A stretch of DNA of 64,000 bases from Escherichia phage vB_Ec-M-J: the sequence record OQ718158.1; one strand, written 5' to 3'. Below, one piece after another: positions 1-23,858 of this stretch; the first letter of the stretch is position 1; every line of letters starts with the position of its first letter. Both the position numbers and the translations under genes were made by a program. The notes under the pieces are model-generated. The model was given only the letters and a program-made list of their open reading frames with translations, was not told the DNA's origin and ran no database searches.

Positions 1-2
1 AA

Positions 3-149
3 GAAGAATTCTTCCAAATGCAATGTGTGCTTGACACAAAAGGATTTGATGTGCTATTATTAAAGAATATACAGAAAGCTGTTAACGAATTAATATCCAA
101 TGACGAGTTAGGCAAAGTGAGGCTGTTCCATGATCTCGAAGTACAATGA
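3..149 (+). CDS. family-A paralog, 5'-truncated at window edge
   Basis: frame-3 ORF open from window start to TGA 147-149; translation begins EEFFQMQCVLD (family motif). Confidence 0.5.
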   Translation, partial: EEFFQMQCVLDTKGFDVLLLKNIQKAVNELISNDELGKVRLFHDLEVQ

Positions 150-705
150 AAGCAATGAGTACAATGAAATTCAGTACACCTACGCTAATGCAATCCTTAT
201 GGGACAAAAGTTAGCTTGTATTGTTGCAGCCTTATATAATGCACAGAAAGATTACAAGCGTCACATCCACAAATGTATTGGTATTATTCCATCGAAGTAC
301 AATACATATATTGCGTGCACGAGACATTTTGATAAACGATTCAATACACCTGATACCCCAAATGCCCATAGTGTTATTGGTCTTTTGGATTTTGCCCCTG
401 GTGCTGTTATTGGAAAGAATGATTTAGAGTACGCATGGTATAATAAAAATGCCCCGTTAGTAATGGTAAAATATGATACAGAAACGAACAAAGCAATAGA
501 GTACAATACATATAAATCAGAGGAAGAATTTTTCCAAGGTTCATTGCTTGTGCCAGTGCGTTTGTTATTTTATAATGTCATAATGAGTACAGTACACGAT
601 AGTCCATTACACAAGAATCACAAAATTAATTTCAATTTTTGTGCTTATGCGATTGATGGTGTTTATGAGTGCTTAATGGAGGTATTGAGTTATGAAGCTG
701 AATAA
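130..705 (+). CDS. hypothetical protein, family A
   Basis: 191-aa ORF; GAGG RBS upstream; motif EEEFFQGSLL. Confidence 0.65.
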   Translation: MISKYNESNEYNEIQYTYANAILMGQKLACIVAALYNAQKDYKRHIHKCIGIIPSKYNTYIACTRHFDKRFNTPDTPNAHSVIGLLDFAPGAVIGKNDLEYAWYNKNAPLVMVKYDTETNKAIEYNTYKSEEEFFQGSLLVPVRLLFYNVIMSTVHDSPLHKNHKINFNFCAYAIDGVYECLMEVLSYEAE

Positions 706-1033
706 TACATTTGATATTAAGAAGTTAAGAGAATGGTTTAATAGTATTGAAATTGACGCCATTCCTTATCATACATATGAACAAAGTGATTTACAAAGTA
801 TTGATATCAGTGAGTTGTACAAATATTATCAGAGTGCATTAGAGATGCATAAGTTATTTTTGAGTACAAATTTCATTCTAAATTACAATTTTGAGGAATT
901 TAATAATTATAATTTAGTACAGAAATATGTAGTAGCAAAGTACATGTACAATCAAGGAATTAAAGATTGCCTCGAATTCAATACCGTTCTTATTTTAGTT
1001 GAGGTAATTTTATGCACCGCATGTCTGATTTAG
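692..1033 (+). CDS. hypothetical protein
   Basis: 113-aa ORF overlapping the upstream stop; no family motif seen. Confidence 0.5.
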   Translation: MKLNNTFDIKKLREWFNSIEIDAIPYHTYEQSDLQSIDISELYKYYQSALEMHKLFLSTNFILNYNFEEFNNYNLVQKYVVAKYMYNQGIKDCLEFNTVLILVEVILCTACLI

Positions 1034-1509
1034 AGTTCAGTTTAGATGCAGCCTTTAAATTTGTTCACAAAATAGAAACAATATATCGTACATTATGTGC
1101 AATAACATCAGTATCAAAAGAGTTTGATGTTGGTGAAAGGTATCAGGTGTGGAATAATTCATTTTATAATAAAGAACATTCTGCGACGGCATTTTATATT
1201 TTAGCATTTAATCCCAGCAATTGTTACCCAGAGAAGCATGAACGTTATCCAAATGACGACATGTGGTTTGAGTACAAAGAAGATGCTGATATGTCGTCAA
1301 TTGTAGTTCCTGATGATTTTAATGCACAAGATTTAACAGAAGAGTGGTGGTTCCAGCAGAATTTAGTACATGATGATATTGATTTATTTTTCTATATTGC
1401 ATTTAAAATGCTTTATCACAACAATATAGTTAAAGAAAGTTTATCGTTTTCATGTCTATATATTGATGATTTGTACAATGAAATTCAAATAAACATGCCT
1501 GTATCGTAA
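1012..1509 (+). CDS. hypothetical protein, family A
   Basis: 165-aa ORF; GAGG RBS; motif EEWWFQQNLV. Confidence 0.6.
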   Translation: MHRMSDLEFSLDAAFKFVHKIETIYRTLCAITSVSKEFDVGERYQVWNNSFYNKEHSATAFYILAFNPSNCYPEKHERYPNDDMWFEYKEDADMSSIVVPDDFNAQDLTEEWWFQQNLVHDDIDLFFYIAFKMLYHNNIVKESLSFSCLYIDDLYNEIQINMPVS

Positions 1510-1581
1510 GATATGGGCTTTTTTTGTTTGACACGAGTACAAATGCATGGTACAATGTGTAATCATTTTAAGGAGATACCT

Positions 1582-2762: not shown

Positions 2763-2763
2763 T

Positions 2764-2958
2764 ATGACCGCCTATGATATCAAACAAAGGCATACGAAGT
2801 TTGATTTGTTCACATACCAATTCCACAATGATATAGTGAATTTTAACATCAATGCGTCCTTGCATCCTACATCACAAGATGATTTTGACAACAGAGTGCT
2901 TAACATCGTGGTGCTTTTGTGTTATAATCATTTCAGTGAATATTTTAACGCCAAATGA
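2764..2958 (+). CDS. hypothetical small protein
   Basis: 64-aa ORF filling the gap between family-A genes. Confidence 0.4.
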   Translation: MTAYDIKQRHTKFDLFTYQFHNDIVNFNINASLHPTSQDDFDNRVLNIVVLLCYNHFSEYFNAK

Positions 2959-2965
2959 GGCACAC

Positions 2966-3484
2966 ATGTATCAGGCCAAGTACAATACATCATATGCATT
3001 TGCACACAACATTTTGAAGATCATCAAAGCGTTAGAGGGTGGATTGCTTAGTCATAAGTACACCAAAGTAGGTGACAATTGGTTCAGAAATGATGATGAG
3101 TTCAGAAGTCATAAGATTGTTTACAGCAATAATTACAGTGCCAATTACCTTCAGGATGTTGCTATGTGCTTCGAATACGTGTTACAGTTCAGGGGTTCCA
3201 TCAGTCCTGATCTAAGAGAACACATGTACATTCGATACCTACCAATGCTTAAGGATGAGAAATCAATATTCAATTCAGTACACCACAGAGTACGAGAGAG
3301 AACATTCAGGGATATTTTAGAAGATGAAGCTGCATATTTCCAGCAATCATTGATTGATGCTCCTGATGTGTTACAGATGCAGAATTTGTATAATGTATTA
3401 GATGCGAACATCGATACGGATATCTTTTTTTCCTTAAGTGATTATGAAACATTTTTGGAAGATTTAAAGGAAATAGGATTATGA
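2966..3484 (+). CDS. hypothetical protein, family A
   Basis: ATG 2966 with GAGG RBS at 2957-2960; motif EAAYFQQSLI. Confidence 0.6.
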   Translation: MYQAKYNTSYAFAHNILKIIKALEGGLLSHKYTKVGDNWFRNDDEFRSHKIVYSNNYSANYLQDVAMCFEYVLQFRGSISPDLREHMYIRYLPMLKDEKSIFNSVHHRVRERTFRDILEDEAAYFQQSLIDAPDVLQMQNLYNVLDANIDTDIFFSLSDYETFLEDLKEIGL

Positions 3485-3835: not shown

Positions 3836-4390
3836 ATGAGTTCAATGAGTTTATTAGATACATTAGAAAAAGACAGAAGTGCCATTAAGAGATTAAAAAA
3901 TCTTGTCCAGAGCATTGCGAACAACGCTGAGAAGTTCAGTGACAATCTTAGTATAGGTGATATAACCAGTACAGGAATAAAAACCCTGAAGTCAGATTTA
4001 TTAATTCATAAGGAAGATAAATTATTATTTGTATTGAGTTCAGATTTAATGGTTGCAAGTAATGGTTTCAATTCGATATCAACACAAGATGGTAGCACAG
4101 GATTATATCTATCACAGGGTGTCCAGACGAACGAACAAAAGTGTTTTAGTTCAGGAGTACAGAATCCCTTTAAGTTCAGTACAGAACAAGCTACAGAGCT
4201 TTTAGATGCTTCAGAAGAGATGTTATTTCAGTACAAAACGGTTCATACAGATTTTGAATTACGATGCATGTACGCTGTTAAGCATTATGTTCAGGAGTTC
4301 GAGAATTTAAGTTATCTTTTAGTTCGAACGAATACAAAGAACATTGGTGCATTAGAAGATTACATTTCAAAAGTTGTTAAAGGGTGCTAA
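3836..4390 (+). CDS. hypothetical protein, family A
   Basis: ATG 3836 after AGGAAAG; motif EEMLFQYKTV. Confidence 0.6.
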   Translation: MSSMSLLDTLEKDRSAIKRLKNLVQSIANNAEKFSDNLSIGDITSTGIKTLKSDLLIHKEDKLLFVLSSDLMVASNGFNSISTQDGSTGLYLSQGVQTNEQKCFSSGVQNPFKFSTEQATELLDASEEMLFQYKTVHTDFELRCMYAVKHYVQEFENLSYLLVRTNTKNIGALEDYISKVVKGC

Positions 4391-4968: not shown

Positions 4969-5174
4969 AGACGTTTCATTTTCACAGGCCGCAGGAGGGG
5001 GGGTCAAAAAAATTTTCGCTGAAAAACATGTTAAGGTATATGTTTAATATAAAGTTTTAAAATGTGTTCACAGAGTACAGTTCATGTTTCCTTAAACAAA
5101 AAAATACCCAGCCGCCGAACGTGCTCCTTATATTGGAGTTTACCTTATTAATTACAGTAGAGATTACAATTGAA

Positions 5175-5558
5175 ATGAAGATGCAAATAAAATATAATGA
5201 ATTTTGTGCAAGGACATTCATGTACACTGGTGAATTAGTTACGCACTGTAACTTATACAAGGGTGATTTAAACTACACAAGGGACAAGCTTATAAAATAC
5301 GAAAATGCTGACTTTTATTTGATGGATTTTAGTACTGGGTTTCATGGGATATCTATCGAGATGCCGGACTATACCGTACTTGATGATGCTGCACTGTTTC
5401 AGGAGGCATTAGTATTTGATAAGAAGTACATCTGTACATTAGAAGAGATAGTTGAAATCCAGCGTAGAATTAAATGTATTCACAGGGAATGTATAGATAT
5501 CTGGTGCAGGACTGGTGAGGCTGATTTCTGGAAATTTTTTAATCTAGGGGAAGAGTGA
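5175..5558 (+). CDS. hypothetical protein, family A (ELFQESL subfamily)
   Basis: start chosen by alignment to the next two paralogs (CNLYKGD); motif PDYTVLDDAALFQEALVFDKKY. Confidence 0.6.
   Translation: MKMQIKYNEFCARTFMYTGELVTHCNLYKGDLNYTRDKLIKYENADFYLMDFSTGFHGISIEMPDYTVLDDAALFQEALVFDKKYICTLEEIVEIQRRIKCIHRECIDIWCRTGEADFWKFFNLGEE
5361..5462 (+). repeat. nucleotide-level paralogous repeat, copy 1 of 3
   Basis: ~85% identical by eye to 5726-5827 and 6103-6186 (atgccggactata...gataagaagtac...). Confidence 0.6.
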
Positions 5559-5914
5559 TGGAATTTGATTTTGTAATATCAGTACATTCTTTTAAGAACA
5601 GTTTTCAGTACTTTTGTAATTTAAACAAAGGTGATTTAATGCACAGTGCAAATGAGTATATTCATTACACTCAGGGTAAATTTACATTCATTGATTACAA
5701 TTCATTACAGTATCCACATCAAGATATGCCGGACTATACAGTAATGGATGCCGCTGAACTATTTCAGGAGTCATTAGTATTTGATAAGAAGTACTTGTGT
5801 ACATTTGAAGAAGTAATTGCAATACAAAATGAAATGAAAGAGTATGACTCTTTGAATAAAGGCAATGTCAGTATTAATCAAGAATACAAATTCAATATAG
5901 GAATTCCAGAATGA
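5555..5914 (+). CDS. hypothetical protein, family A (ELFQESL subfamily)
   Basis: tandem paralog; motif PDYTVMDAAELFQESLVFDKKY. Confidence 0.7.
   Translation: MMEFDFVISVHSFKNSFQYFCNLNKGDLMHSANEYIHYTQGKFTFIDYNSLQYPHQDMPDYTVMDAAELFQESLVFDKKYLCTFEEVIAIQNEMKEYDSLNKGNVSINQEYKFNIGIPE
5726..5827 (+). repeat. nucleotide-level paralogous repeat, copy 2 of 3
   Basis: matches 5361-5462. Confidence 0.6.
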
Positions 5915-6255
5915 CATTTGATTTTTCTATGTTTATACCTAAGATTAGTACTTCACTGGAAGTGTATTGCAATCTTAACAAAGGTGATTATGAACACAAA
6001 ATGGATCAGTACATTAAATTTAATGGTTCTTACTTTAGCTTCATTGATTATCAGGCCAAAGGAACAGTTGTAGAAAATATGAAAGACTATGCAACTGTAC
6101 ATGGTGAGGCTGAAATATTTCAAGAGTCATTAATATTTGACAAGAAGTACTTGTGTACACTAGAGGAAGTTATTGAACTCCAACAGAAGATGAAAGAATA
6201 TAGAAGAATCTGCATAGAGACTGATTCCAAAGATAGGTATTGTTTTAAGCTATGA
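5911..6255 (+). CDS. hypothetical protein, family A (ELFQESL subfamily)
   Basis: tandem paralog; motif AEIFQESLIFDKKY. Confidence 0.7.
   Translation: MTFDFSMFIPKISTSLEVYCNLNKGDYEHKMDQYIKFNGSYFSFIDYQAKGTVVENMKDYATVHGEAEIFQESLIFDKKYLCTLEEVIELQQKMKEYRRICIETDSKDRYCFKL
6103..6186 (+). repeat. nucleotide-level paralogous repeat, copy 3 of 3
   Basis: matches 5400-5462 region (ttcaagagtcattaatatttgacaagaagtac). Confidence 0.5.
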
Positions 6256-6437
6256 ATAAAAAAGAACAAATGGAATCATTCATGAATACAATACTTCGAC
6301 GATTCGTAATTGATATTAGACATAACAACAGCATTAGGAATGATATGTACTTCGGTACATATGATATTAGTGAATTGTATATAGCTAATATTCACATGGT
6401 GTACCGAGATTATATCAAGACACAACACAGGAGTTGA
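6252..6437 (+). CDS. hypothetical small protein
   Basis: 61-aa ORF with ATGA overlap to upstream gene. Confidence 0.4.
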   Translation: MNKKEQMESFMNTILRRFVIDIRHNNSIRNDMYFGTYDISELYIANIHMVYRDYIKTQHRS

Positions 6438-6438
6438 T

Positions 6439-6909
6439 ATGAGTTTTTCAAGAGCATTAGAAATTGCTAAGTTAATTGATTTATGTAAAAAGGAAATAGT
6501 ACTCAATCGTCTCAATGGGTATCTATTCAAGGAAGGTAAAGCTTATTGTCGAATGATATACGATGACAGTAGTGAGTACATTCACATGTACGAAGAAAAC
6601 TTAGATTCTTCTGAAACAACACTCACTGGGTGTGATGTTAATCTGGAAGATAATTACATGTACTTCTGTCGTGATGCTGATATTTTAATACAATATACTG
6701 ACATTATAACTGGTGCAGCAGAAAAACATCTTCCGTATTCAGTACTGGATAATGACTGGGGAAGTGAAGAGTTCTACTTCCAGCAGAATACTATCTACGA
6801 GGAATATGTGCTTGACAAGCTTGTCATTCTGTGGTACTTTAATAATACCGATTGTCCTAGCTTCTATCTGGACTTGGATCTACTACGAGTTATTAAAGAG
6901 GATATATGA
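6439..6909 (+). CDS. hypothetical protein, family A (MSxxSAL subfamily)
   Basis: AGGAG RBS; N-terminus MSFSRALEIAK; motif SEEFYFQQNTIY ... LVILWYF. Confidence 0.7.
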   Translation: MSFSRALEIAKLIDLCKKEIVLNRLNGYLFKEGKAYCRMIYDDSSEYIHMYEENLDSSETTLTGCDVNLEDNYMYFCRDADILIQYTDIITGAAEKHLPYSVLDNDWGSEEFYFQQNTIYEEYVLDKLVILWYFNNTDCPSFYLDLDLLRVIKEDI

Positions 6910-7346
6910 GTTTAGCAAGTGCACTTAAACTGGCACACAAAATACATCACTTCCACGATAACATAAAAAGTGGTTTCTATGGTGATAAAGTAAGTGCATT
7001 TGGTAATGAGTATTATCTATCAGGTATAAAGACATACTCTGATGATATTTTACTTATGGGCCATGATAAAGACAATACTATACAGTACTCTTCATGTAGT
7101 CAATATACTAGTTTTTTTGTATATATTCCAGGTACTAAGATTACTTTTGACACATCAAATACACCTGTTGACTTCGGGATACTTGATGGGCCGTGGGGTA
7201 CTGAAGAGTATTACTTCCAACAGAGTCTTATTTTTAACCAAGAAATGCTTGATTCCTTGGTTGTTTTGTGGTACTTTAAGGAATTGAATTTTGAACCCTT
7301 CTTCCTTGACTGGGGAGCATGTGAATATTTAAGTACAGGGGATTAG
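6906..7346 (+). CDS. hypothetical protein, family A (MSxxSAL subfamily)
   Basis: N-terminus MSLASALKLAHK; motif GPWGTEEYYFQQSLIF ... LVVLWYFK. Confidence 0.7.
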   Translation: MSLASALKLAHKIHHFHDNIKSGFYGDKVSAFGNEYYLSGIKTYSDDILLMGHDKDNTIQYSSCSQYTSFFVYIPGTKITFDTSNTPVDFGILDGPWGTEEYYFQQSLIFNQEMLDSLVVLWYFKELNFEPFFLDWGACEYLSTGD

Positions 7347-7348
7347 TA

Positions 7349-7837
7349 ATGTCATTACAAAGTGCATTGAAAGAAGCAAAGAAGATTCATGAGTACATGA
7401 TTATGGTACAAGAAGGTTCAGTGCCTGGTGTGTATAAAACATCTGATACTGAATTTTTTGTAAAAGACCGCGACGATTATGATGAGTCAGAGATACATGC
7501 AGAAACGTTAGTACTACACACTGATACGGGTGATACTGATGACTGTGAATATCATATGTACAATCAATACATTAGTTATTGTAGAGATGAAGATATTATA
7601 ATTTACAGCCCTGATTACGATGATTATGACACAATCATTCCGTATTCAGTACTGGAAGGTCCGTGGGACAGTGAGGAATATTACTTCCAGAACAGTACTG
7701 TGTACAATGAAGAAGAATTAGATGTTATTGTAATTATGTGGTACTTTAAAAGTATTGGTTCTGGTAGTTTCTATTTCGATTATGAATACGTAGAGAATAC
7801 TGTAGGGGAAGATAATGTCATTACGAAGTGCTCTTGA
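7349..7837 (+). CDS. hypothetical protein, family A (MSxxSAL subfamily)
   Basis: N-terminus MSLQSALKEAKK; motif GPWDSEEYYFQNSTVY ... IMWYFKSI. Confidence 0.7.
   Translation: MSLQSALKEAKKIHEYMIMVQEGSVPGVYKTSDTEFFVKDRDDYDESEIHAETLVLHTDTGDTDDCEYHMYNQYISYCRDEDIIIYSPDYDDYDTIIPYSVLEGPWDSEEYYFQNSTVYNEEELDVIVIMWYFKSIGSGSFYFDYEYVENTVGEDNVITKCS
7631..7775 (+). repeat. nucleotide-level paralogous repeat, copy 1 of 2
   Basis: ~80% identical by eye to 8094-8233 (ggtccgtgggaYagtgaRgaRtattacttYcagaaYagtact...). Confidence 0.6.
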
Positions 7838-8258
7838 TAAAGCAAAAGAACTACAGGCATATATTGAAGATATTAAGGCTGGGAAGTTCGAAGAAGTATA
7901 CAAAGCCGAGAATGGTAACTACTACAAGGATTGTGATTTTGCTACAACTACAGTTATTCTTGGGTTGAATTCCAAAAGTCCCGCAGATTTTTCACAATAC
8001 AATCCAGATGCAGAATTTATCAGTTATGCTTATGGTGGTGAAATCCGTTTTTATAATCGCAGCAGACCTTTAAAATTGAACTTTGAAGTACTGAAAGGTC
8101 CGTGGGATAGTGAAGAGTATTACTTTCAGAATAGTACTTTGTATGATGATGAAGTACTAGATACTTTAGTTATTATGTGGTACTTTAAAAGTATTGATAG
8201 CACAAGATTTTATTTGGATTATGAATATGTACGTGCAGCACATAAGGGTAAACGATGA
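7815..8258 (+). CDS. hypothetical protein, family A (MSxxSAL subfamily)
   Basis: N-terminus MSLRSALDKAKE; motif GPWDSEEYYFQNSTLY ... IMWYFKSI. Confidence 0.7.
   Translation: MSLRSALDKAKELQAYIEDIKAGKFEEVYKAENGNYYKDCDFATTTVILGLNSKSPADFSQYNPDAEFISYAYGGEIRFYNRSRPLKLNFEVLKGPWDSEEYYFQNSTLYDDEVLDTLVIMWYFKSIDSTRFYLDYEYVRAAHKGKR
8094..8233 (+). repeat. nucleotide-level paralogous repeat, copy 2 of 2
   Basis: matches 7631-7775. Confidence 0.6.
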
Positions 8259-8569
8259 AATTCTTATACAGTATTCAGTACATTCCAGGTACAATTAGTT
8301 TAATGTATTTCTTCGATCATGATAATTTCCAGCACCTTGCCGTTAGAAGATGTAATGAATCTTTAATGATTGAATATCTTCACGATTGTGATTATATTCC
8401 CGACTTTCTTGAATGTGATTACAGAGATGATCATGAAACATTTCTTTTTCAGGAATCACTTATATGGGATAAGAGAATTAATTTTCATGCCTTAATTGAG
8501 ATACAAAAACAAGTGAAGTACTACTGGGATTACTTAATTACCCAAGAATATATAGAGATTGAAATATAA
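8255..8569 (+). CDS. hypothetical protein, family A (ELFQESL subfamily)
   Basis: 104-aa ORF; motif ETFLFQESLIWDK. Confidence 0.65.
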   Translation: MKFLYSIQYIPGTISLMYFFDHDNFQHLAVRRCNESLMIEYLHDCDYIPDFLECDYRDDHETFLFQESLIWDKRINFHALIEIQKQVKYYWDYLITQEYIEIEI

Positions 8570-9985: not shown

Positions 9986-10181
9986 TCGAATTGAATACAT
10001 GAGAACTGTGAGTGCAGTGTGGGACATATGGTTCACTACTAAACCAAAAATGGATTACCATGACTTTAAGCTATTGTTCTTCGTTGGCTCTAACAAACAG
10101 GATGTTGCAATGAAGGGTTATATTCAGCACTTACAGGAACTAATCCAGAAGAGAATATATGAAAATAATAGACCAAGATGA
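9954..10181 (+). CDS. hypothetical small protein
   Basis: 75-aa ORF; weak similarity to the next small ORF. Confidence 0.45.
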   Translation: MISMKYSKTFNRIEYMRTVSAVWDIWFTTKPKMDYHDFKLLFFVGSNKQDVAMKGYIQHLQELIQKRIYENNRPR

Positions 10182-14976: not shown

Positions 14977-15502
14977 TAATGTAAAATGCATTGCCGACAT
15001 TTGTATAAAATTAATGAAAATTTTCATTAACCCAAAATACAAGACTCGTTCTTTACGTCATAATATTGATGATCATTGTGTAATTACTATTCTAGGTAGT
15101 ATGCTTGATGTAAAGTACGATGGTAAATTGTTATTCGGTGTCCGAGAAGAGAAGATAGATGATGTCTTCTTTTCTCCTAAAGATAAGTTTGAACCTTCTG
15201 ATTATAAAGTAATTATTCGTGATGATAGTATCTACATTAGTAGTGACTATTCAAATTACGTCGAACAGATATACACTGAAAATGTTGACTACAACCATGA
15301 ACTACTAGATTTACCAACATCAGACATAGATATGGAGAGAATCAAATTTTCATTATCAAATAATGAGTACTTAGGTATACAAACATATTATGCACTTCAG
15401 GGAAAGATTCCACCTGCGATGTATATAAGAATTGAGATTGGTAATGTATTCAGTGATACGGTTATATCAATTGCTGATAAAATATTGAAGGTACAATTAT
15501 GA
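14960..15502 (+). CDS. hypothetical protein
   Basis: 180-aa ORF; AGAGGA RBS; family motif not evident. Confidence 0.5.
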   Translation: MYIENDNVKCIADICIKLMKIFINPKYKTRSLRHNIDDHCVITILGSMLDVKYDGKLLFGVREEKIDDVFFSPKDKFEPSDYKVIIRDDSIYISSDYSNYVEQIYTENVDYNHELLDLPTSDIDMERIKFSLSNNEYLGIQTYYALQGKIPPAMYIRIEIGNVFSDTVISIADKILKVQL

Positions 15503-16056
15503 ATTTTACTAATTATAATTTACATAGACTTGAATTACGTCATTGTATTGCATTTGCAAAAACATTAATGTGCATCATTGATACACTATCATCTAAAACT
15601 TTTCGAAAGGATAATGATTTATGCCTTAAAAAAGGTAAAGTACAAAAATACGATTATACAGATGAAACGTATTTTGATATCTTTTTGGGAACAAATGATA
15701 GTACAAGAGTAGGATGTTTGGGAACAGTTGGAACACATTGCTTTACATGGAATCCAAATTCAAGTAAAGTACGAATTGACACCAACGATACATGTTATGC
15801 TGACCTTAGTACTGAATCTGATTTAGAATCAGTTATGTTCCAACACATGTTAATTCATAAACCAAATGAAATTCTTTATCTTGTTGCTTTTAGTTATCTC
15901 TTACAAAATTATAAATCAGGTTTTACTATTGAAACTGATATCGATGAGATTATGGATGAGATTCCTAGTTTAAAAGATATTCTTGAAGAAAAAGATTTCT
16001 ATCAGGACTTTAGAGATTTATACAACATGCACAGGGAGTTATCTGATAATGAATAA
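15499..16056 (+). CDS. hypothetical protein, family A
   Basis: motif ESVMFQHMLIH. Confidence 0.55.
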   Translation: MNFTNYNLHRLELRHCIAFAKTLMCIIDTLSSKTFRKDNDLCLKKGKVQKYDYTDETYFDIFLGTNDSTRVGCLGTVGTHCFTWNPNSSKVRIDTNDTCYADLSTESDLESVMFQHMLIHKPNEILYLVAFSYLLQNYKSGFTIETDIDEIMDEIPSLKDILEEKDFYQDFRDLYNMHRELSDNE

Positions 16057-16567
16057 AGATGATATTCTAATCAGACTAATCAACAGTCTGTTAAAATTCG
16101 TGAATAGTGATAGTGATACACACAATGTAGGTGACATTGAATTCAAATCATTTGGAATGTACGGTGAGGACAAAACATATTATGCATCAATGAAATTCCA
16201 AGATTATTATGAAATGTTAATTGCGTTAACATACGAAGATGTGGACCCAAGATGGAGTTCCAGTATTTCTCTGTCGAGAATGGTAATTCGTAGTAAACAT
16301 CGTTACATTTCGTCAAAGAATACTCCTAATTTGTTTGATATTGTTTTGAATGAAAATACCAACCCCCCATCTAAACATGATATCGTACCTTTAACTGATG
16401 AAGTACAGTTTCAATTGAGTACCATTTGTGATGAAGATGTGATATCATGTATGAAAATTTACGAGAAGATTGGTAGTGATATCCCTAAGAACTATTACAT
16501 AACAATAGATGGAACGTACCTCCGAGATGAGGCTCTAGCGTACATTGACAGCGTTTTACCAAAATAA
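16049..16567 (+). CDS. hypothetical protein, family A
   Basis: ATG 16049 overlapping upstream stop; motif DEVQFQLSTI. Confidence 0.55.
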   Translation: MNKDDILIRLINSLLKFVNSDSDTHNVGDIEFKSFGMYGEDKTYYASMKFQDYYEMLIALTYEDVDPRWSSSISLSRMVIRSKHRYISSKNTPNLFDIVLNENTNPPSKHDIVPLTDEVQFQLSTICDEDVISCMKIYEKIGSDIPKNYYITIDGTYLRDEALAYIDSVLPK

Positions 16568-16590
16568 AGACCCTTATGGGTCTTTTTGTG
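16568..16590 (+). terminator. rho-independent terminator
   Basis: hairpin AGACCC-ttat-GGGTCT followed by a T-run. Confidence 0.65.
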
Positions 16591-16598: not shown

Positions 16599-16627
16599 TT
16601 TACATGAGCATTCAGGTGTGTTATAAT
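16599..16627 (+). promoter_or_regulatory. sigma70-like promoter
   Basis: -35 TTTACA, 17-nt spacer, extended -10 TGTTATAAT; 28 nt upstream of the gene at 16655. Confidence 0.5.
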
Positions 16628-16654: not shown

Positions 16655-17218
16655 ATGAGTACTGAATTAATTAAAGAAATCACATTGTTGGTAAAGCATT
16701 GTTTTAAGTTCATTGATGATAATGGTTCACGCCAGTACATTAAAGTTAATGAGAAATATAACATTAACGTCCTAAAGAATGAAACCGTTAACAGTTATGC
16801 AAACATTGAGTTAGATGTTGAGGACAAATACACAGCATTACACATCATTTCGTCCGGCGATAGAAAACAAGATTATCGTTCTACATTTTATGATGATAGT
16901 GTTACTGTTGGTTATAAATTTCATAAAAATAAAATTGCCTATAAGAATACATACACACATGAAGTAATTGAAGAGTACAATTATAAAATTAAAAAAGACG
17001 AGTACGATGTACTTTTATTCAATGCGAACCTCATACACAACGCTGGTACTGTTCGCAATCTTATGTTAGCATATGAAATTCCAAAGATTATAGAAAGAAA
17101 TGAATTGATAATCTTTAAAACTATATTAAAATTCAGTACAGAAGAATTAGAAGATCTAGTACTGGCTCTTAAGACGTTCATCAATGAACATGTACCTGTT
17201 AAATTAGAGGACTTATAA
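16655..17218 (+). CDS. hypothetical protein
   Basis: 187-aa ORF; AGGAGAAG RBS; first gene after a terminator-promoter pair. Confidence 0.6.
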   Translation: MSTELIKEITLLVKHCFKFIDDNGSRQYIKVNEKYNINVLKNETVNSYANIELDVEDKYTALHIISSGDRKQDYRSTFYDDSVTVGYKFHKNKIAYKNTYTHEVIEEYNYKIKKDEYDVLLFNANLIHNAGTVRNLMLAYEIPKIIERNELIIFKTILKFSTEELEDLVLALKTFINEHVPVKLEDL

Positions 17219-17802
17219 TGCAAGCTGAACACATTCAAATTATGAAATTGATGCATGACATTGCAGAACTATCTGAAAAGCACAACATTACTGAACATGA
17301 GCCTATTGGAAATTATCGTCTTAAAGTTGAATGCAAATCACCATATCGTTTTGGTTCAGTAGTACTGGAGTCTTATAAAGTTTACGATTATGGAACGACG
17401 AAAAAAGGTTCATGGGATACTATGGCAATGTATATCCGAACATCAAGGCATAGTGAGCAAATCGGTTCCATTACTCCAAACATGATATTTGTCAATGCTT
17501 TACACGAAGATATTAATCGAATTGTTGAATCTAATTTTGATGACGTAGAGAATGATACATATTTGGAAATTCCACCAGAACTAGATCAAAGTGAAGACAT
17601 TCGTGAAGCATACATTTTCCAGAGATCAGTACTTGACAACTTCAAGGAGTTTGAGTACATGATGCTTTGCTATGAAACTGCAAAAGCTATTGACACTGGT
17701 GAATTGGTAATGTATAGTAAGTTCATTAACTGTGAATCCGATACATTAAAAGAGCTACACACGGCAATCAAAAACATCAAGGATACATATGAACGCTTAT
17801 AG
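17218..17802 (+). CDS. hypothetical protein, family A
   Basis: motif EAYIFQRSVL. Confidence 0.6.
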   Translation: MQAEHIQIMKLMHDIAELSEKHNITEHEPIGNYRLKVECKSPYRFGSVVLESYKVYDYGTTKKGSWDTMAMYIRTSRHSEQIGSITPNMIFVNALHEDINRIVESNFDDVENDTYLEIPPELDQSEDIREAYIFQRSVLDNFKEFEYMMLCYETAKAIDTGELVMYSKFINCESDTLKELHTAIKNIKDTYERL

Positions 17803-18367
17803 TTATATGACAGCCCGACACCAACAGCTATATGATATCAGTACAAAGATGCTACACATTGTTGGTAGTGCCAAAGAAATTAACAAACATTACCTCATTC
17901 GTGATGTGTCATTTTCATCTAAATGTATGTCCAAAGAATATTACGATCACGGTATTCTTACTATTTCTGGTGCCAGGAATATTTGTATTGTAAAAAATAA
18001 TAGTAAAAGTAATGAAGAGTGCGAGATTAGATCCGATATCCAAATTAATGATGATGGAAGTTTTTCACACCATCCATTTCATATTAGTACTGTTGGTGTT
18101 TTATATAATATTAAAGTACTATTCGGTGATAAAGAGTATGAGTTAAAAGCTATCAATCCAGAATCAAGTACAGTTGATGAAGAACTGTTTCAGATGAGCA
18201 CCGTTATACCTGAAGAGGTTCTTAGTACTGTTATTTTTTGTAGTTTAATTTATCACACATACAAAAAGTTCCAGTTCGATTTCCACATTTTAGGAACGTA
18301 CATCTTCAATACTTTGAATGTTGATCGTTTAAAAGCATTAAATGCAGCAATGGATAAGGTGCTATAA
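17789..18367 (+). CDS. hypothetical protein, family A
   Basis: motif DEELFQMSTVI. Confidence 0.6.
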   Translation: MNAYSYMTARHQQLYDISTKMLHIVGSAKEINKHYLIRDVSFSSKCMSKEYYDHGILTISGARNICIVKNNSKSNEECEIRSDIQINDDGSFSHHPFHISTVGVLYNIKVLFGDKEYELKAINPESSTVDEELFQMSTVIPEEVLSTVIFCSLIYHTYKKFQFDFHILGTYIFNTLNVDRLKALNAAMDKVL

Positions 18368-18795
18368 TGACAAGAGATGAATGCTTATACATATGGGATA
18401 TAATTGAAACTACACTTTCAAATCCAGAAAATTATAAAACAAAAAAAAGACAACGACACAAAATATGGATAGATTTGTTCGTTGAGGGCATACACGCAGT
18501 GACTATTTGGGATTCACCGAGGGCATCATCATCTACTCTGTTGGACAATGAATGCATTGATTGCATTAATTCCAATTTTCATCTCCACGGTACTACATAT
18601 TTCGGCACATTTCTGGATATTGAAAGTAAAGATGATATTGATTCACTTGCGTTACAATACCAAGTACTGTATGATACTAAATTAATTTACGATTTAGTAC
18701 TAGCTTCTTATGTGTATAAATTAATGATGAAATATAATCATATTTCAGTTTCAGTTTATACTAAGGATATTCTTTCATTAAGAGACAAAACATGA
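18367..18795 (+). CDS. hypothetical protein
   Basis: 142-aa ORF; no clear family motif. Confidence 0.5.
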   Translation: MTRDECLYIWDIIETTLSNPENYKTKKRQRHKIWIDLFVEGIHAVTIWDSPRASSSTLLDNECIDCINSNFHLHGTTYFGTFLDIESKDDIDSLALQYQVLYDTKLIYDLVLASYVYKLMMKYNHISVSVYTKDILSLRDKT

Positions 18796-19298
18796 GTTTA
18801 TTAAATGCACGAGAATTAGTTGAGATGTATGAGATCTTATCTTCATATAAAAATTCCCCAAAAGATGTAATTCTCAACAAAAAGTTCCATGTCAATGTTG
18901 ATCATATGAAAAATATAGATATGATTTCTTTAGTGGAAAGTCGTAAATCGGGTCTTGAGCGTGATATCATGCGTTTGATTTATATTAACAAACCATCATA
19001 TACTAATGATAGTTCAATTAGTAATGAGACGTTTTTGTACACTCCTTATACTGATTGTACTTTAGTTTCAATGTCTAATCAGAAACAAGATACTATCCAA
19101 TTCATCAATACCAGTACTGATAACATTGAAGAAAATGAATTCCAAAACAATACATTAAGTTCATGTAGTAGTGTTATAACCTTTATGTCATATCTGTGGT
19201 CAATCAAATCAAATGCAATTGTATATAGTTCTAATTACACACAAGATAGTATTGTTGAATCATTTAAAGTTCTAAAGGAATACTATGAAAATAACTAA
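18792..19298 (+). CDS. hypothetical protein, family A
   Basis: motif EENEFQNNTL. Confidence 0.55.
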   Translation: MSLLNARELVEMYEILSSYKNSPKDVILNKKFHVNVDHMKNIDMISLVESRKSGLERDIMRLIYINKPSYTNDSSISNETFLYTPYTDCTLVSMSNQKQDTIQFINTSTDNIEENEFQNNTLSSCSSVITFMSYLWSIKSNAIVYSSNYTQDSIVESFKVLKEYYENN

Positions 19299-19866
19299 TG
19301 ATTTTATTAGAAGCTTAGTGCACCCTATGCTTGGTGTTATGAAAAAACTACAGACTCTACCTGAAGACAACGATTACAAGTTTAATCGTTTTGATTCGGA
19401 TGTGTTTTGTATTGAAATGGAAATTAATAACAATCGTTATTTTCATTTAAAATTCAAAGAATCGTCGAGTTCGCACTACAACTTTGACATGAATTTTAAA
19501 ATAAGCAATGATATTGAAGAAAACGCAATATCAAATCATATTAGCAGAAATGGTTTCATGCATAGAACTAATATGTTCAATAATAAAAACAGTATTATAT
19601 CTAAATGGAATCATCAATTCACTAAAATTTGTGATATTGATTGCAGTACATTTGGTGAAGAACAATACTTTCAGTTAAGTACAATACATGAACTTCCACC
19701 ATATGATTGTGTAAAAACATGGTTTGATATTCATAATATAATTGATGATGCAATCGTACTTCCATTTGGGTTGTCAATATCATATACTGCACCTAAAACG
19801 TTTGTTTTTACTGAAGATATGATTATGAAAAAGATATGGGCGATGATGCCACTTATGCTTGATTAA
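19285..19866 (+). CDS. hypothetical protein, family A
   Basis: motif GEEQYFQLSTIHEL; tandem paralog of the next gene. Confidence 0.65.
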   Translation: MKITNDFIRSLVHPMLGVMKKLQTLPEDNDYKFNRFDSDVFCIEMEINNNRYFHLKFKESSSSHYNFDMNFKISNDIEENAISNHISRNGFMHRTNMFNNKNSIISKWNHQFTKICDIDCSTFGEEQYFQLSTIHELPPYDCVKTWFDIHNIIDDAIVLPFGLSISYTAPKTFVFTEDMIMKKIWAMMPLMLD

Positions 19867-19877: not shown

Positions 19878-20429
19878 ATGAATCAAAGTCATGATCTTTT
19901 TAAATTATGTGCATCCAAAGATGTGGAAGGATGGGCAGATAAAATCAATACAATTATTAACCGTTATCTTGGCTTCTGTGCACGATCACGAAGTGAAGGT
20001 TCAATGCGTTTCCAAATAACCATGACAATCGATGGTGTTACGATTTATGTCAACGAAGAACGTCTTGGTATTAATCTCTATGATAGTTGTGTCTTTGCTA
20101 TTCACCAGAAAATGGGGGCAGGTTGGGGTTGTAATAATATGAACACCAATGCATTTTTCTGGGTAGGTCATAGCAACACAGTACTTGATCCTTCAAAGAA
20201 ATCAAACCTTTTAGATGATAATTTGGTATATGATTTAGCTTACTCTGAAGAACAACATTTCCAGTTAAGTACAATACATAGCTTAGTTCAATATGACGAT
20301 TGTATCAAAGCATTAGAATTATGCCATTCACTTGAACTTAAAGAAAAATTGATACAAATTTACCCATTGTTCTTCCATGAAGAAGTACAATGCACACTAG
20401 ATCATATTTTATATGGGTACGACAAATGA
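19878..20429 (+). CDS. hypothetical protein, family A
   Basis: motif SEEQHFQLSTIHSL. Confidence 0.65.
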   Translation: MNQSHDLFKLCASKDVEGWADKINTIINRYLGFCARSRSEGSMRFQITMTIDGVTIYVNEERLGINLYDSCVFAIHQKMGAGWGCNNMNTNAFFWVGHSNTVLDPSKKSNLLDDNLVYDLAYSEEQHFQLSTIHSLVQYDDCIKALELCHSLELKEKLIQIYPLFFHEEVQCTLDHILYGYDK

Positions 20430-21028
20430 GAAAAAGTTATCAAGAAGCTATTGACCTAATTCGAGAAGTTATTAAGGCGGCTCCAGGTGCGATAGCATTC
20501 AAGAAGTCCCTATATAAAAAGTATGGTCCCATGTCAAGTATGTGCTGTCAAAAGAAACGTAGTAAATTTACTACGCAGTACTGGCATGATTCTATTATCC
20601 TGAGTAATGAACATCAGCGTATTTTAACAATCGAATCAGTAGATAATCAATATGGTGAAGGAATGATTTGTGTTCCTGACTATGATGAAATTAATTTCAA
20701 TTGTGGAGATTATGAGACAACATTATTATTACACGAGGGTTACCCTGAAGGTGATGTAATGGCAGAGTATAATCCAAAAACCAAAATACTGAAACGTGGT
20801 ATGCAGTTCAAAATCAATAACAAAGATGATGTGGAAGCAGCACTAATGCAACTTAGTACTAGTGAACCTATCACTATTGATGTAGAAGAGTTATGGGGCA
20901 TCATTTCAGTACTTAATGAGTGTTATAAAATTAAATCATTACATAAGTACTCTATCATTTTACATACTAATTGTGCAATGATAAAATGCAAGAACATACA
21001 AGAGATGGTGGTTCCAGATGAACTTTAA
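20426..21028 (+). CDS. hypothetical protein, family A (divergent)
   Basis: ATG 20426 overlapping upstream TGA; motif EAALMQLSTS. Confidence 0.55.
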   Translation: MRKSYQEAIDLIREVIKAAPGAIAFKKSLYKKYGPMSSMCCQKKRSKFTTQYWHDSIILSNEHQRILTIESVDNQYGEGMICVPDYDEINFNCGDYETTLLLHEGYPEGDVMAEYNPKTKILKRGMQFKINNKDDVEAALMQLSTSEPITIDVEELWGIISVLNECYKIKSLHKYSIILHTNCAMIKCKNIQEMVVPDEL

Positions 21029-21602
21029 AGAAATAGAAAGTAAAATTAAGTACTTCAAAGATATTAAAAAACTTTGGGAAAAGTATAAAATTGATTATCA
21101 GTTCCAAGATGATGATACTGTTCAAAACATTGATATTAATATTCGTGTGAAGTTCAAGAATGGTAGTTATGGTGAAGTTAAATTGAATGCTATTGGTGTA
21201 TTCCTTAAAGATTATGATGGTTCTTCACTTGCTCAATTCGATTTCACACCTGATCCTGATGATATGTTACTGAGTGAAATCAATGCATATGACCTTGAGA
21301 TGTTTAGTGGGAAGCCTTTACTATTCCGCTTATCAGATGAATGGGATGAGGTTTACTACACATACAAAGATGGAGTGATTCGAGACGTGAATGATGAAGT
21401 AGTAAATGATATGGAAGAACGTCTATTTCAAGAATCATGTGTGTCATCGGAGTCATATACATATCAATATCTTCTTGACATGTTCGATTTGTATAGTAAA
21501 ATAGATTCAGAAATGAGTACTTTAAGTATTCAATACCTTACAATCAACGACTATGCACAACTTGAAACAGTAGTGAAAGCTCTGGTCAAAGTACTGAAAT
21601 AG
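21018..21602 (+). CDS. hypothetical protein, family A
   Basis: motif EERLFQESCV. Confidence 0.6.
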   Translation: MNFKEIESKIKYFKDIKKLWEKYKIDYQFQDDDTVQNIDINIRVKFKNGSYGEVKLNAIGVFLKDYDGSSLAQFDFTPDPDDMLLSEINAYDLEMFSGKPLLFRLSDEWDEVYYTYKDGVIRDVNDEVVNDMEERLFQESCVSSESYTYQYLLDMFDLYSKIDSEMSTLSIQYLTINDYAQLETVVKALVKVLK

Positions 21603-21611
21603 GAATGAATT

Positions 21612-22025
21612 ATGAAACTGTATCATGCGAGTACTGTAAAAATTGATAACTTTTATATCCCGTATGGTGGCCTTCATATGGGAGGCAAACACAGTGCTCT
21701 AGAAGCTGCATTACGCAAGCTGAGAAGCCCACTAAACGTCGTTGACGCTGATACAGTATACTTGCATACCTTAGAAGTTGATGTTGATAACGTGCTTCTA
21801 TGGGAAGATTTAGGTAGTGATGATGAGTGGCGTGGGCTGATTGAACATTGTAATTCTAAAGGTTACGATGCTGTTCAGTACACAAATGAATACGAGCCGG
21901 ATAATGTTCCTAGTTATATGATTTGGGATACATCTAAAATTCGTATTATTGAAGTTGATGCGATGCATATGGATGATGCAGAAATGATCATCGAAGATTT
22001 CCTTGATGAATATGAAGGTGTATAA
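21612..22025 (+). CDS. hypothetical protein
   Basis: 137-aa acidic ORF; no family motif. Confidence 0.55.
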   Translation: MKLYHASTVKIDNFYIPYGGLHMGGKHSALEAALRKLRSPLNVVDADTVYLHTLEVDVDNVLLWEDLGSDDEWRGLIEHCNSKGYDAVQYTNEYEPDNVPSYMIWDTSKIRIIEVDAMHMDDAEMIIEDFLDEYEGV

Positions 22026-22543
22026 TGATTGAACCTATGACAGTACTAGCACGTACTAAACTATTATTGAAGATTGCTGAGATATTCACTGTTCTTATGT
22101 ACAAAAATAAAGACATAACTGACTTAGGTATTAAGCAACCTTGGTCTGTGTCAAGGTTCTCTGCATTCTACAGATTATCATATAATGGTGAAACTGTTCT
22201 TGATTTTAATCCAAAAGCCAAGTTTATGAATTACGCTGCATTATATGAATGTAATGGTGGATTAACAAATGACTTCACTGAAATAAAAGTACAATCAGAA
22301 TCATTAGAATTTAATGACTTACTATATCCAGAATTTAAGTTAACTGAAGAAATACTTTTCCAGTACTCTCTGATTCTCAAAGATACCAAAAGTCTTGAGT
22401 ACTACAAAGAGTTAGTAGATATTTTTAAGAATACTCGATTTACAAAAGATATTGTGATATTCTGGTATGCAGAGCATGTTACTGAGGAATTGCTTGAAGA
22501 ATTTCTTCTAAATATGACAGCAATCAAGGAGAAGTTATGTTAG
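22025..22543 (+). CDS. hypothetical protein, family A
   Basis: motif TEEILFQYSLIL. Confidence 0.6.
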   Translation: MIEPMTVLARTKLLLKIAEIFTVLMYKNKDITDLGIKQPWSVSRFSAFYRLSYNGETVLDFNPKAKFMNYAALYECNGGLTNDFTEIKVQSESLEFNDLLYPEFKLTEEILFQYSLILKDTKSLEYYKELVDIFKNTRFTKDIVIFWYAEHVTEELLEEFLLNMTAIKEKLC

Positions 22544-23010
22544 ACATTTTAGGAAACATCGATACAGCAAATTATTTTATTCAAGATGCACTGTTCAATA
22601 CAGTACAGAAAGGGTTGGATGTACGATGTAATATCCATCAGGGAGATGGGTATTTTGTTGATATCACTGAAACACGCAAGAACGTGTTCAATTTAAACAT
22701 TACCACATTGACACGTCAGAACATTGCACGTATTTTGGTCAATAAAGATGAAGTAGTTCTTCGTTATAATTCCAAATTCCTGTTCACATACAAGAAGAAG
22801 ACTGACATGTTCAGTACTAATTTGTTTGATGAACCCTTCAATCTGGAAGACTTAGAAGCAACATTCTTTACACAGAATACTATGCTGAAATTCAATGATG
22901 TTGAATTTTCATCAGAAGTAATGTCTGAAACACTACAAATGGTTAAGGTAGTATTCTATGCTTTTCAACAGTTTAACGAAGAACGAAACAAGGTTAACAA
23001 CAACAGATGA
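22537..23010 (+). CDS. hypothetical protein (degenerate family A)
   Basis: AGGAGAAG RBS; weak motif EATFFTQNTM. Confidence 0.5.
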   Translation: MLDILGNIDTANYFIQDALFNTVQKGLDVRCNIHQGDGYFVDITETRKNVFNLNITTLTRQNIARILVNKDEVVLRYNSKFLFTYKKKTDMFSTNLFDEPFNLEDLEATFFTQNTMLKFNDVEFSSEVMSETLQMVKVVFYAFQQFNEERNKVNNNR

Positions 23011-23371
23011 ACTAATCGCGGCGATGGGAGCCAATGAGAAATACTTCAATGGGATTCATTTTTTTAAAACGTATCTTAGTGAAAGTAAAGTACTATATGT
23101 ATACGGTTCCCAGTACTGCATTGTCGCAAAGCACCCAGATTCGATTTCACTAAAATTTAACACTTATTCAAAAAACTTCTTGACGATTAATAAAAGCAAT
23201 GTTACTATGTCTGGTATAGGGAATCAGGTTGTTGAGATTCCTTTGGACTCAATTGATTCTATTGAGTTCTTTCAATACGAGTGCTTAGGTGTTGATTTTG
23301 GTACTGTCAGTACTGAATCTATGCGAACATTAATTAATTTACTTAAAGGTAAAGTTCATGCTTTTAACTAA
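22958..23371 (+). CDS. hypothetical protein, family A
   Basis: motif SIEFFQYECL; start uncertain (alternative ATG 23024). Confidence 0.45.
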   Translation: MLFNSLTKNETRLTTTDELIAAMGANEKYFNGIHFFKTYLSESKVLYVYGSQYCIVAKHPDSISLKFNTYSKNFLTINKSNVTMSGIGNQVVEIPLDSIDSIEFFQYECLGVDFGTVSTESMRTLINLLKGKVHAFN

Positions 23372-23858
23372 TTCGATGAAGAATTCATTTAAAATTATCA
23401 AAGAAATACTAAATGGGTCTAAAACTTCTAGTGGGTCTTCCTTTACTAGTGACCAGATCCAACACAGTACAAAGGATTGTACTGTAATCTTTGGGTTACA
23501 TAGTCTGCGTTTGACAATAGTAAATAATATTGATAACACAGCAATTGTAATCACCCCATGTCATATTCAGAATGAAACAGGTGCATACTTACACCACATG
23601 GGGACTGTATTCTACATCTTCAATACTGAAGAAAACATTGTTAAAGAATACAACACACTCAATGTTGATGCAGGTGAGTTATTCCAATTGAGTACTGTCA
23701 ATGATTGTAACTTCAGTGACAATGCAGAAGTACTTCCATTGTTTCTAAGTCTTCTCAATAACATGGAAAAACTAACCACTGCATACAACAAAAGTGACGT
23801 ACCGCAAGCAGTATTGAATATCACCGAAGCAATGGAGAAATACAAAGCTGTGACCTAA
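23358..23858 (+). CDS. hypothetical protein, family A
   Basis: motif AGELFQLSTVN. Confidence 0.6.
   Translation: MLLTNSMKNSFKIIKEILNGSKTSSGSSFTSDQIQHSTKDCTVIFGLHSLRLTIVNNIDNTAIVITPCHIQNETGAYLHHMGTVFYIFNTEENIVKEYNTLNVDAGELFQLSTVNDCNFSDNAEVLPLFLSLLNNMEKLTTAYNKSDVPQAVLNITEAMEKYKAVT

Follow-up and report, generated by a model that had tools for sequence, protein, structure and literature searches.

Several phages carry early takeover blocks that run on host RNA polymerase, among them the host-takeover module in the terminal repeat of SPO1, the pre-early region of T5 and the early "monkey-wrench" genes of T4. Large eukaryotic DNA viruses possess terminal multigene families, such as MGF110/360/505 of African swine fever virus (ASFV) and the ankyrin or kelch families of poxviruses. 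The locus compared with them here lies in a 64,000-nucleotide stretch of Escherichia phage vB_Ec-M-J (sequence record OQ718158.1), and the whole of this stretch is referred to below as the window. From the window edge to position 23,858, it contains a tandem array of small genes, many of which encode proteins with a common F-Q-x-S motif (FQxS family). Tandem amplification of anti-defence loci in phages by a "gene accordion" has been described for T4 tifA (PMC9391042) and, driven by SegB, for T6 (PMC13096335).

The array shares with the early blocks of SPO1, T5, T4 and phage PA5oct small proteins of unknown fold, encoded on the same strand at or beside a terminal repeat, consensus sigma-70 promoters and absence from the virion. 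Those blocks are composed mostly of unrelated genes, whereas the array is dominated by one family of 40-odd paralogues with a second family of about 30; its genes also appear to form long operons, whereas the early takeover blocks have one promoter per gene. With the ASFV and poxvirus families, the array has in common tandem paralogues near a genome end, old duplications, fast divergence and a copy number that varies between close isolates. It differs from them in having a bacterial host and no sequence or fold relationship, and any host-range or immune-evasion role of the array would be hypothetical. The likeness to the gene accordion lies in the tandem multiplication of accessory genes, a possible route by which such arrays begin; accordion copies, however, are recent and near-identical, whereas the closest FQxS paralogues are 40–50% identical and many of their lineages are older than the split between two phage genera. 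By these analogies, the array would functionally resemble phage early takeover blocks and evolutionarily the terminal families of eukaryotic viruses, and it seems to belong to no characterised protein family.

Source Phage and Genome Position

The source phage is an Asteriusvirus jumbo coliphage of the RaK2-like group. The nucleotide identity of the window is 96–98% to jumbo coliphages WPEC3, fEgEco12, WPEC5 and CMSTMSU and about 83% to phage 121Q. Window position 1 corresponds approximately to position 32,091 of fEgEco12, whose linear genome has a 20,993-bp direct terminal repeat at the left end (PMC13070987). The left end of fEgEco12 comprises, in order, the repeat with small, well-spaced genes, a dense run of genes for proteins of about 70 amino acids (aa) at 21.1–29.7 kb and the FQxS-family genes. 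In fEgEco12 coordinates, the FQxS array occupies about 27–56 kb, past the 21-kb repeat, and the window interval is most of this ~29-kb tandem array. The window genes are located almost entirely on the + strand, and those of the array mostly overlap or abut.

One Paralogous Family

An ORF (open reading frame) was assigned to the FQxS family if it matched the family profile at E ≤ 1e-3 and its F-Q fell in the invariant columns of the alignment. ORFs were counted if they were non-nested, on the + strand, at least 45 aa long and located between positions 1 and 24,400; about 53 were found. The strict [FY]QxS motif is present in 30 of them, 40–81 residues before the C-terminus, compared with about one FQxS expected from composition in the ~7,900 residues of the array. 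A preliminary description of the window, made from its sequence, had reported a dense same-strand array of small genes reaching ~23.9 kb, with a motif near the C-terminus. Both observations are borne out, and the coordinates and motifs of the seven genes given as examples are all correct, including the start at 1582, which agrees with the annotation of fEgEco12.

Profile and pairwise comparisons indicate that the FQxS ORFs are one paralogous family and that their homology is genuine, as the preliminary description had supposed. BLASTP single linkage at E < 1e-3 alone unites 31 sequences in one component. A pooled and iterated hidden Markov model (HMM) converged on 154 members across phages, with 35 of them in the window, and Turkey5 added a further 37; at the inclusion threshold, the HMM recovered none of the 84 ORFs in the rest of the window. 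When seeded from window ORFs alone, the HMM detected eight members upstream of the corresponding interval in fEgEco12 (27,270–31,901, E from 1e-12 to 1e-17), none of them in the seed, as well as 42 members in the 121Q locus, about 41–42 in A4, a divergent Asteriusvirus, and 25 to at least 27 in Klebsiella phage KP13-7 (Alcyoneusvirus).

The homology extends beyond the short motif. The module captured by the family profile is 63–72 columns long, and in the short and medium subfamilies paralogues can be aligned over their full length with identities of 25–49%. Examples are 7349–7837 against 7815–8258 (40% identity over 150 aa) and 8569–9012 against 9009–9455 (25% over 153 aa); a KP13-7 protein and an A4 protein form a full-length pair across genera (33% over 188 aa). 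For several long-type members, homology is demonstrable only over a module of ~60 aa.

Within the motif, none of the 154 aligned members lacks F or Q, an invariance that is partly circular as the profile rewards those residues; Ser occurs in 85%, and the two preceding Glu residues in 75% and 70%. The motif codons vary freely: TTT 18 and TTC 16 for F, CAA 13 and CAG 21 for Q, and TCN 12 and AGY 17 for Ser. This synonymous variation, which includes both Ser codon families, means that conservation acts on the protein and not on a DNA or RNA element.

The figure of at least 45 members in the window, proposed in the preliminary description, does not hold as stated, but it is roughly right for the whole genome. 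Profiles give 35 members, and two more (18367–18795 and 18792–19298) are linked through their orthologues (hhalign E 2e-5 and 6e-4). About five further ORFs have a degenerate motif recognised by eye (RFQHET, LMQLST, EFFQYE, LFNAN and FFTQNT), with no statistical support. At least 10 ORFs within the interval are non-members, including seven tiny ORFs; two of those belong to an unrelated family, family B, described below. Members detected by the HMM span 17.5 kb, or 27% of the window, and it is the entire interval that amounts to 37%; the claim that over a third of the window is devoted to the family is therefore too high.

The genome-wide tally is 35–37 members in the window, eight upstream and g099. 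The array does begin upstream of the window, as had been proposed: apart from the eight upstream members of fEgEco12, frame 3 at 3–160 (+ strand, end approximate) holds what the window edge leaves of a short-type member, its 3′ part (EEFFQMQCVLD...NIQKAVNE), equivalent to g099 of fEgEco12.

The remaining 40 kb of the window contain five [FY]QxS matches, which are family-like only at 35899–36477. This ORF is a weak outlying candidate ~12 kb outside the array, with PEHFQISTLYD 53 aa from the C-terminus and an HMM E of 9e-4 in a relaxed window-only scan. The ORF at 36474–37163 is a second weak outlying candidate (HMM E 4e-3), with a BLASTP link to the family component.

Protein Properties and Predicted Fold

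The members are small (104–210 aa), soluble proteins, for which the median isoelectric point (pI) is 5.0 and the median net charge −4.9 per 100 aa. They are more acidic than the other window proteins, whose median net charge is −2.8 per 100 aa (Mann–Whitney p = 0.003). No transmembrane segments were found in the members after correction of start codons; hydrophobic stretches occur only in N-terminal extensions of the longest-ORF calls, which the annotation of fEgEco12 does not use. The most acidic member, 7349–7837, has a pI of 4.05 and a net charge of −28 in 162 aa. We take this acidity to be within the range of DNA-mimic anti-restriction proteins, although this member showed no structural likeness to any such protein. 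The family as a whole does not combine the very acidic surface and mimic-like fold of such proteins as Ocr and ArdA.

The AlphaFold model of the short member 11493–11852, built with 36 aligned sequences, has a predicted local distance difference test score (pLDDT) of 84.3, rising to ~96 over the motif, and a predicted template modelling score (pTM) of 0.80. It comprises five strands, a helix at residues 63–72 carrying the motif ELFQESLVW, a second helix at 81–97 and a final strand. The model of the medium member 13260–13742 (pLDDT 71) features the same confident helix pair, an extra N-terminal helix and an ill-defined sheet region. The models are best read as a common scaffold, an antiparallel β-sheet with two helices on one face, and as a new α/β fold. 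The first helix is predicted to carry the signature [ST]xEEx[YFL]-F-Q-x-S-[LT]-[VIL], and larger members would vary in the sheet region and in the added N-terminal helix. Generic platforms of a β-sheet plus helices that can be named for comparison are the RNA polymerase β lobe, the polo-box and Mam33/p32.

In the motif helix, conservation falls on positions −1, 0, +1, +3, +4 and +5 and leaves +2 and +6 free. This pattern suggests that the motif is a largely buried core helix with acidic residues at its start, and that the surfaces of the proteins are variable. The preliminary description had envisaged a shared C-terminal interaction module. A shared helix does exist; it appears, however, to be part of the core and not an exposed docking motif, and medium members are homologous over their full length. 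The hydrophobic LxxLVIxWYFK helix, which had been attributed to many members, is the signature of one subfamily only (6439–8258 together with 14494–14976).

Database Matches and Distribution

The family had not been recognised as a characterised one in the preliminary description, and the searches agree with this. None of 34 members matched Pfam or NCBIfam, profile searches of the PDB with members gave nothing credible, and there was no fold match to any solved structure. Foldseek searches of BFVD matched only uncharacterised proteins of phages slurp01, PBECO4 and RaK2, which belong to the same phage group. In PHROGs, members match phrog_12674, 9317, 15629, 13866, 19795, 30978, 38467, 34636 and 38478, all of "unknown function"; each window member is strong in one group, and several cross-match 12674 or 9317 weakly. 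PHROGs thus contains the same proteins, but as at least nine separate orphan groups, which are joined here through the FQxS helix into one superfamily of at least 150 sequences.

An ADP-ribosyltransferase, which an aromatic-x-S-T-S motif could recall, was considered and rejected: Pfam matched none of the 34 members, the acidic pair precedes the Ser in place of the order R...STS...ExE, and the proteins are as short as 104 aa. The label "putative ADP-ribosyl transferase" in phage ph0011 falls on the orthologue of 21612–22025, a non-member inside the array with no Pfam match at E ≤ 0.1. This ORF is well conserved, with identities of 91%, 90% and 76% to its orthologues in 121Q, A4 and Turkey5, respectively.

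Searches with tblastn using the members matched only Asteriusvirus phages of Escherichia and Salmonella and Alcyoneusvirus phages of Klebsiella; the conserved right half of the window additionally matches phages of Erwinia, Pectobacterium and Serratia. An exhaustive HMMER search over 1.84 billion representatives yielded 80 matches at E ≤ 1e-3. The top match, P0043 (773 aa, 14 stretches), was rejected as a tandem-repeat artefact, and the remaining 79 relatives are standalone proteins of 49–202 aa, none fused to another domain. Named cluster members come only from the two phage genera or from E. coli assemblies with contigs of ~350 kb. A profile built from a gappy full-length alignment was weak against a 5.8-billion database, giving 13 matches, all close orthologues. 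In the literature searched on this phage group, no description of the family and no transcriptomics or anti-defence work was found, and paralogy is mentioned only generally: ~10% of the gene products of RaK2 and 22 ORFs of phage CBB have been reported as paralogues.

Evolution of the Array

The array is collinear with that of 121Q. The 33 reciprocal-best pairs have a median ratio of nonsynonymous to synonymous substitution rates (dN/dS) of 0.23 (range 0.06–0.55), and the protein identity of members in this one genome pair varies from 41% to 94%. Most members are 25–45% identical to their counterparts in A4 and Turkey5, and several genes directly after the array 70–90%. These values indicate that the copies are kept under purifying selection, yet diverge far faster than neighbouring genes.

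Even the closest paralogues in the window are merely 40–50% identical. The nearest paralogue is located within two positions for 12 of the 35 members; 2,000 random trials gave 3.9 on average and never more than 11. In KP13-7, 19 of 27 members are nearer to an Asteriusvirus protein than to any paralogue of their own genome. The low identity of paralogues, the clustering of neighbours and the orthology across genera point to an old expansion, in part by local tandem duplication, whose lineages were then retained; by the same comparisons, many of the paralogue lineages predate the split of Asteriusvirus and Alcyoneusvirus.

Copy turnover can be seen among the short-type members, of which the window has three (5181–6255, against 5322–6763 in fEgEco12 locus L010) and both fEgEco12 (g111–g114) and 121Q have four. 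The extra copy in fEgEco12, a 97% identical phage, is g113, which accounts for a length difference of ~314 bp. The member at 130–705 shares only 65% identity with g100, the gene at the same position in fEgEco12, against 95–100% for neighbouring genes and a background of 97%, which suggests local replacement or a divergence hotspot.

Expression Signals

The best sigma-70 matches fall in the few real gaps of the array, and all signals listed here are on the + strand. A terminator-like hairpin with a T-run (1497–1518) is followed directly on its 3′ side by a sigma-70-like promoter, TTGACA-17-TACAAT with TG (1528–1556), and then by AAGGAG and the ATG at 1582. A promoter-like site, TTAACA-17-TATAAT with TG, is located at 2900–2928. 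A perfect sigma-70 consensus, TTGACA-18-TATAAT with an extended −10 TG (12/12), is found at 12718–12747, in the 59-bp gap before 12781. A terminator hairpin (16566–16585) is followed directly by the sigma-70-like promoter TTTACA-17-TATAAT with TG (16599–16627), and a terminator-like hairpin at 24486–24506 closes the last transcription unit of the array.

The terminal repeat of fEgEco12 contains seven perfect TTGACA-16/17-TATAAT promoters in successive intergenic gaps, with promoters of the same type before nearly every gene. In PA5oct, a distant relative, infection is rifampicin-sensitive and dependent on host RNA polymerase, the terminal-repeat genes are early and the promoters are of the TTGAC/TATAATA type (PMC7318152). 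Taken together, the gap promoters, the adjacency to the terminal repeat and the precedent of PA5oct make it most probable that the array is read early in infection by host RNA polymerase, in a few operons.

The terminal repeat of fEgEco12 also carries an identical 28-nt hairpin (AAAGGGATTGACTCCGGTCAGTCCCTTT) three times, at 13489–13516, 16758–16785 and 19510–19537. Each copy overlaps a promoter-like site, TTGACT-17-TATTAT, which makes the hairpin a candidate regulatory repeat of the early region. In the window, the longest non-coding stretch of the array (~210 bp, 4969–5180) includes a run of G and then one of A/T (GGAGGGGGGGTCAAAAAAATTTT) and has no Rfam match. Rfam and tRNA scans of the whole window gave no matches.

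Possible Function

We consider the array, with a probability of about one half, to be a lineage-restricted repertoire of early host-interaction proteins, active in takeover or anti-defence, in which a shared scaffold presents variable surfaces. Operons with host-type promoters next to the genome end point to a conserved early host-handling toolkit. Each copy would be a stoichiometric binder that uses its variable surface against a different host protein; the bound protein, for example a defence, nucleic-acid-handling or takeover target, would be neutralised or redirected, and jointly the copies would provide a broad early host-interaction repertoire. The array corresponds to gp404c–gp466c of phage phAPEC6, and none of these is among its 62 virion proteins identified by mass spectrometry, which include none between gp347 and gp549 (PMC7247149). 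The set of host-takeover or anti-defence effectors suggested in the preliminary description agrees with the promoters of sigma-70 type, the position after the repeat, the absence from the virion and the fast divergence under purifying selection, and it is from these features that we infer the function. The restriction of the family to two host-specific genera also suits this reading.

Several observations weigh against this reading. The polar Gln, invariant in all copies, is easier to reconcile with a partner or ligand common to them than with targets that are purely independent. The acidity of the proteins is only modestly above the genome background, and the dN/dS values of 0.06–0.55 indicate constraint and not the positive selection of an arms race. 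Promoter-like sites in total are not enriched over shuffles of this AT-rich DNA, and two of the best-scoring ones, at 31–60 and 5170–5198, are both situated in coding sequence and were dropped as intergenic promoters.

The invariant Gln keeps alive two variants, with a shared partner or a shared class of ligand. In the former, the copies are adaptors: the invariant helix pair docks each of them on one hub (host or phage machinery, of which the ribosome, RNA polymerase and the ClpP homologue of the phage are examples), and the variable sheet recruits different substrates, in parallel with the poxvirus ankyrin/F-box or BTB-kelch families. The F and Q found in all 154 members, the conserved acidic pair and the variation of the N-terminal and sheet regions agree with such a design, and the phage does encode a ClpP homologue (49671–50366) and a weak second one (53301–53909). 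Nevertheless, the conservation of the motif helix suggests burial in the core and not exposure, no known adaptor or degron motif is matched and the link to ClpP amounts to co-occurrence in the same genome, so that we hold the adaptor design to be distinctly unlikely.

An invariant aromatic residue paired with Gln is a common mode of nucleobase recognition. The aromatic-Gln pair could therefore form the ligand pocket of a small-molecule or nucleotide "sponge", with different copies sequestering different immune signalling molecules, and the proteins are small, soluble and probably early. This is improbable in our estimate, given that the motif appears buried, that the copies far outnumber the known types of signal and that neither the known sponges nor any solved structure resembles the family in sequence or fold.

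It is also conceivable, though unlikely, that host proteins are not targeted and the family serves the intracellular programme of the phage itself, in replication or assembly factories, chaperoning or temporal regulation. The retention of paralogue lineages in two genera under purifying selection and the adjoining nucleotide-metabolism and repair genes would suit this role. However, a housekeeping role would hardly call for forty or more diverged copies; the array diverges much faster than core genes, its copy number differs between near-identical phages, and tblastn finds no family member in other Rak2-like relatives that share the core genes.

The tandem structure, the many "hypothetical" annotations and the inner body contained in phAPEC6 virions (PMC7247149) might be taken for signs of evolutionary debris, a selfish expansion without function, or internal virion proteins like the inner-body paralogues of phiKZ-like phages. 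We regard this as very improbable, since the ORFs are intact, with dN/dS of ~0.23 and collinear orthologues in every genome examined, the lineages are older than the genus split and gp404c–gp466c are missing from the 62 virion proteins of phAPEC6. Least credible is a processing site, EExYFQ↓xS, at which a protease would cleave all the proteins as common substrates. The likeness to the TEV/3C consensus ExxYxQ↓(G/S) is literal, e.g., EEMYFQGS in 13260–13742 and EEGYFQGS in 9009–9455, but Q is followed by a wide variety of residues (G, Y, L, Q, E, N, M, R or H), often bulky or charged ones, with the Ser one position later. Moreover, the motif lies in a helix with a pLDDT of ~96 and not in an exposed linker, and the only window genes annotated as proteases are of the ClpP type. 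The variable residue after Q and the confident helix mark the TEV-like appearance as a coincidence.

Genes of the Array and Neighbouring Families

All members listed here are on the + strand. The left part of the array comprises 130–705 (191 aa, EEEFFQGSLL, HMM E 7e-12), 1012–1509 (165 aa, variant motif EEWWFQQNLV, E 1.6e-10 after pooling of five phages), 1582–2157 (191 aa, AEEYFQYSTL, E 7e-13), 2154–2762 (202 aa, ESFFFQLSLV, E 9e-6), 2852–3484 (up to 210 aa, EAAYFQQSLI, E 2e-9) and 3836–4390 (184 aa, EEMLFQYKTV, E 4e-10). The true start of 2852–3484 may be downstream of the promoter-like site at 2900–2928.

A cluster of three short-type members with the motif xxELFQESLV follows (5181–5558, 5558–5914 and 5911–6255; E from 2e-12 to 9e-17), whose copies are 49% identical to one another. 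The next four members are of the medium type (6439–6909, 6906–7346, 7349–7837 and 7815–8258; E from 1e-14 to 3e-17). They have the motif EE[FY]YFQ[QN][SN] followed by an LVxxWYFK helix, and a mutual identity of 33–41% over 86–150 aa, up to the full length. Four members at 8255–8569 (short), 8569–9012, 9009–9455 and 9452–9985 (E from 4e-10 to 6e-13) and one at 10340–10894 (184 aa, EENIFQNSLM, E 1e-9) complete this part.

Further to the right are three members at 11493–11852 (short type), 11842–12180 and 12188–12721 (E from 1e-16 to 7e-11), five at 12781–13263, 13260–13742, 13735–14097, 14081–14494 and 14494–14976 (E from 9e-12 to 3e-16), and two at 15499–16056 (ESVMFQHMLI, E 1e-9) and 16049–16567 (E 2e-13). 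Two long-type members (17218–17802, E 2e-7, and 17789–18367, E 8e-12) precede the two degenerate ones, 18367–18795 (SLALQYQVLYD) and 18792–19298 (EENEFQNNTL), whose orthologues in Turkey5 and A4 are HMM members and whose E values with the window HMM are 0.02 and 7e-4, respectively. The array continues with 19285–19866 and 19878–20429 (EEQ[YH]FQLSTIH, E 3e-11 and 2e-7), 21018–21602 (194 aa, EERLFQESCV, E 7e-10) and 22025–22543 (172 aa, EEILFQYSLI, E 4e-8). A possible degenerate member at 23024–23371 (115 aa, SIEFFQYECL; hhalign probability 32%, E 5e-4, motif recognised by eye) is followed by the last clear member, 23358–23858 (166 aa, AGELFQLSTV, E 5e-9).

Family B is a second multigene family, of helical proteins of ~65–90 aa with a conserved LGTNYQE motif. 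In fEgEco12, it forms 29 tandem copies at 21,091–29,747, directly between the terminal repeat and the FQxS family; two copies are located in the window array (9999–10181 and 10159–10350), and the family is also found in 121Q, A4, Turkey5 and Klebsiella phage KP13-7. The idea that family B is a truncated form of the FQxS family was rejected, as an hhalign probability of 0.4% shows the two to be unrelated.

On the 3′ side of the array, the window encodes a DNA ligase, a polynucleotide kinase (PNK), an RNA ligase, a Sir2-like protein and NUDIX, PhoH and ClpP homologues. The ClpP homologue matches PF00574 with a Pfam E of 1e-41, and the second ClpP-like ORF gives a weak match, with an E of 4e-4 on the border of the Pfam cut-off. 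At 30934–32337, four ORFs of ~90–100 aa (30934–31203, 31457–31768, 31779–32090 and 32053–32337), linked by BLASTP at E < 1e-3, form a third small cluster of paralogues.

Biological Significance

A more far-reaching possibility, of which we are doubtful, is a hard-wired repertoire in which one stable scaffold has acquired ~45 specificities. Every copy would neutralise its own immune or housekeeping protein of the host or, in an adaptor variant, deliver its target to a common machine via the F-Q helix. If the ~30 LGTNYQE proteins are included, this gene set, conserved in Asteriusvirus and Alcyoneusvirus, would exceed every other dedicated counter-host set known from a phage.

Therapies against E. 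coli and Klebsiella are being developed with jumbo phages of the 121Q/RaK2 group, in which over 80% of the genes lack a known function. The present analysis reduces ~45 "hypothetical proteins" per genome (~75 with family B) to one family with a signature, a confident structural model and a probable early context. Should the proteins indeed act in counter-defence or takeover, many new inhibitors of bacterial proteins could be drawn from them, and the array would be the counterpart, in a bacterial virus, of the terminal multigene families known from poxviruses and ASFV.

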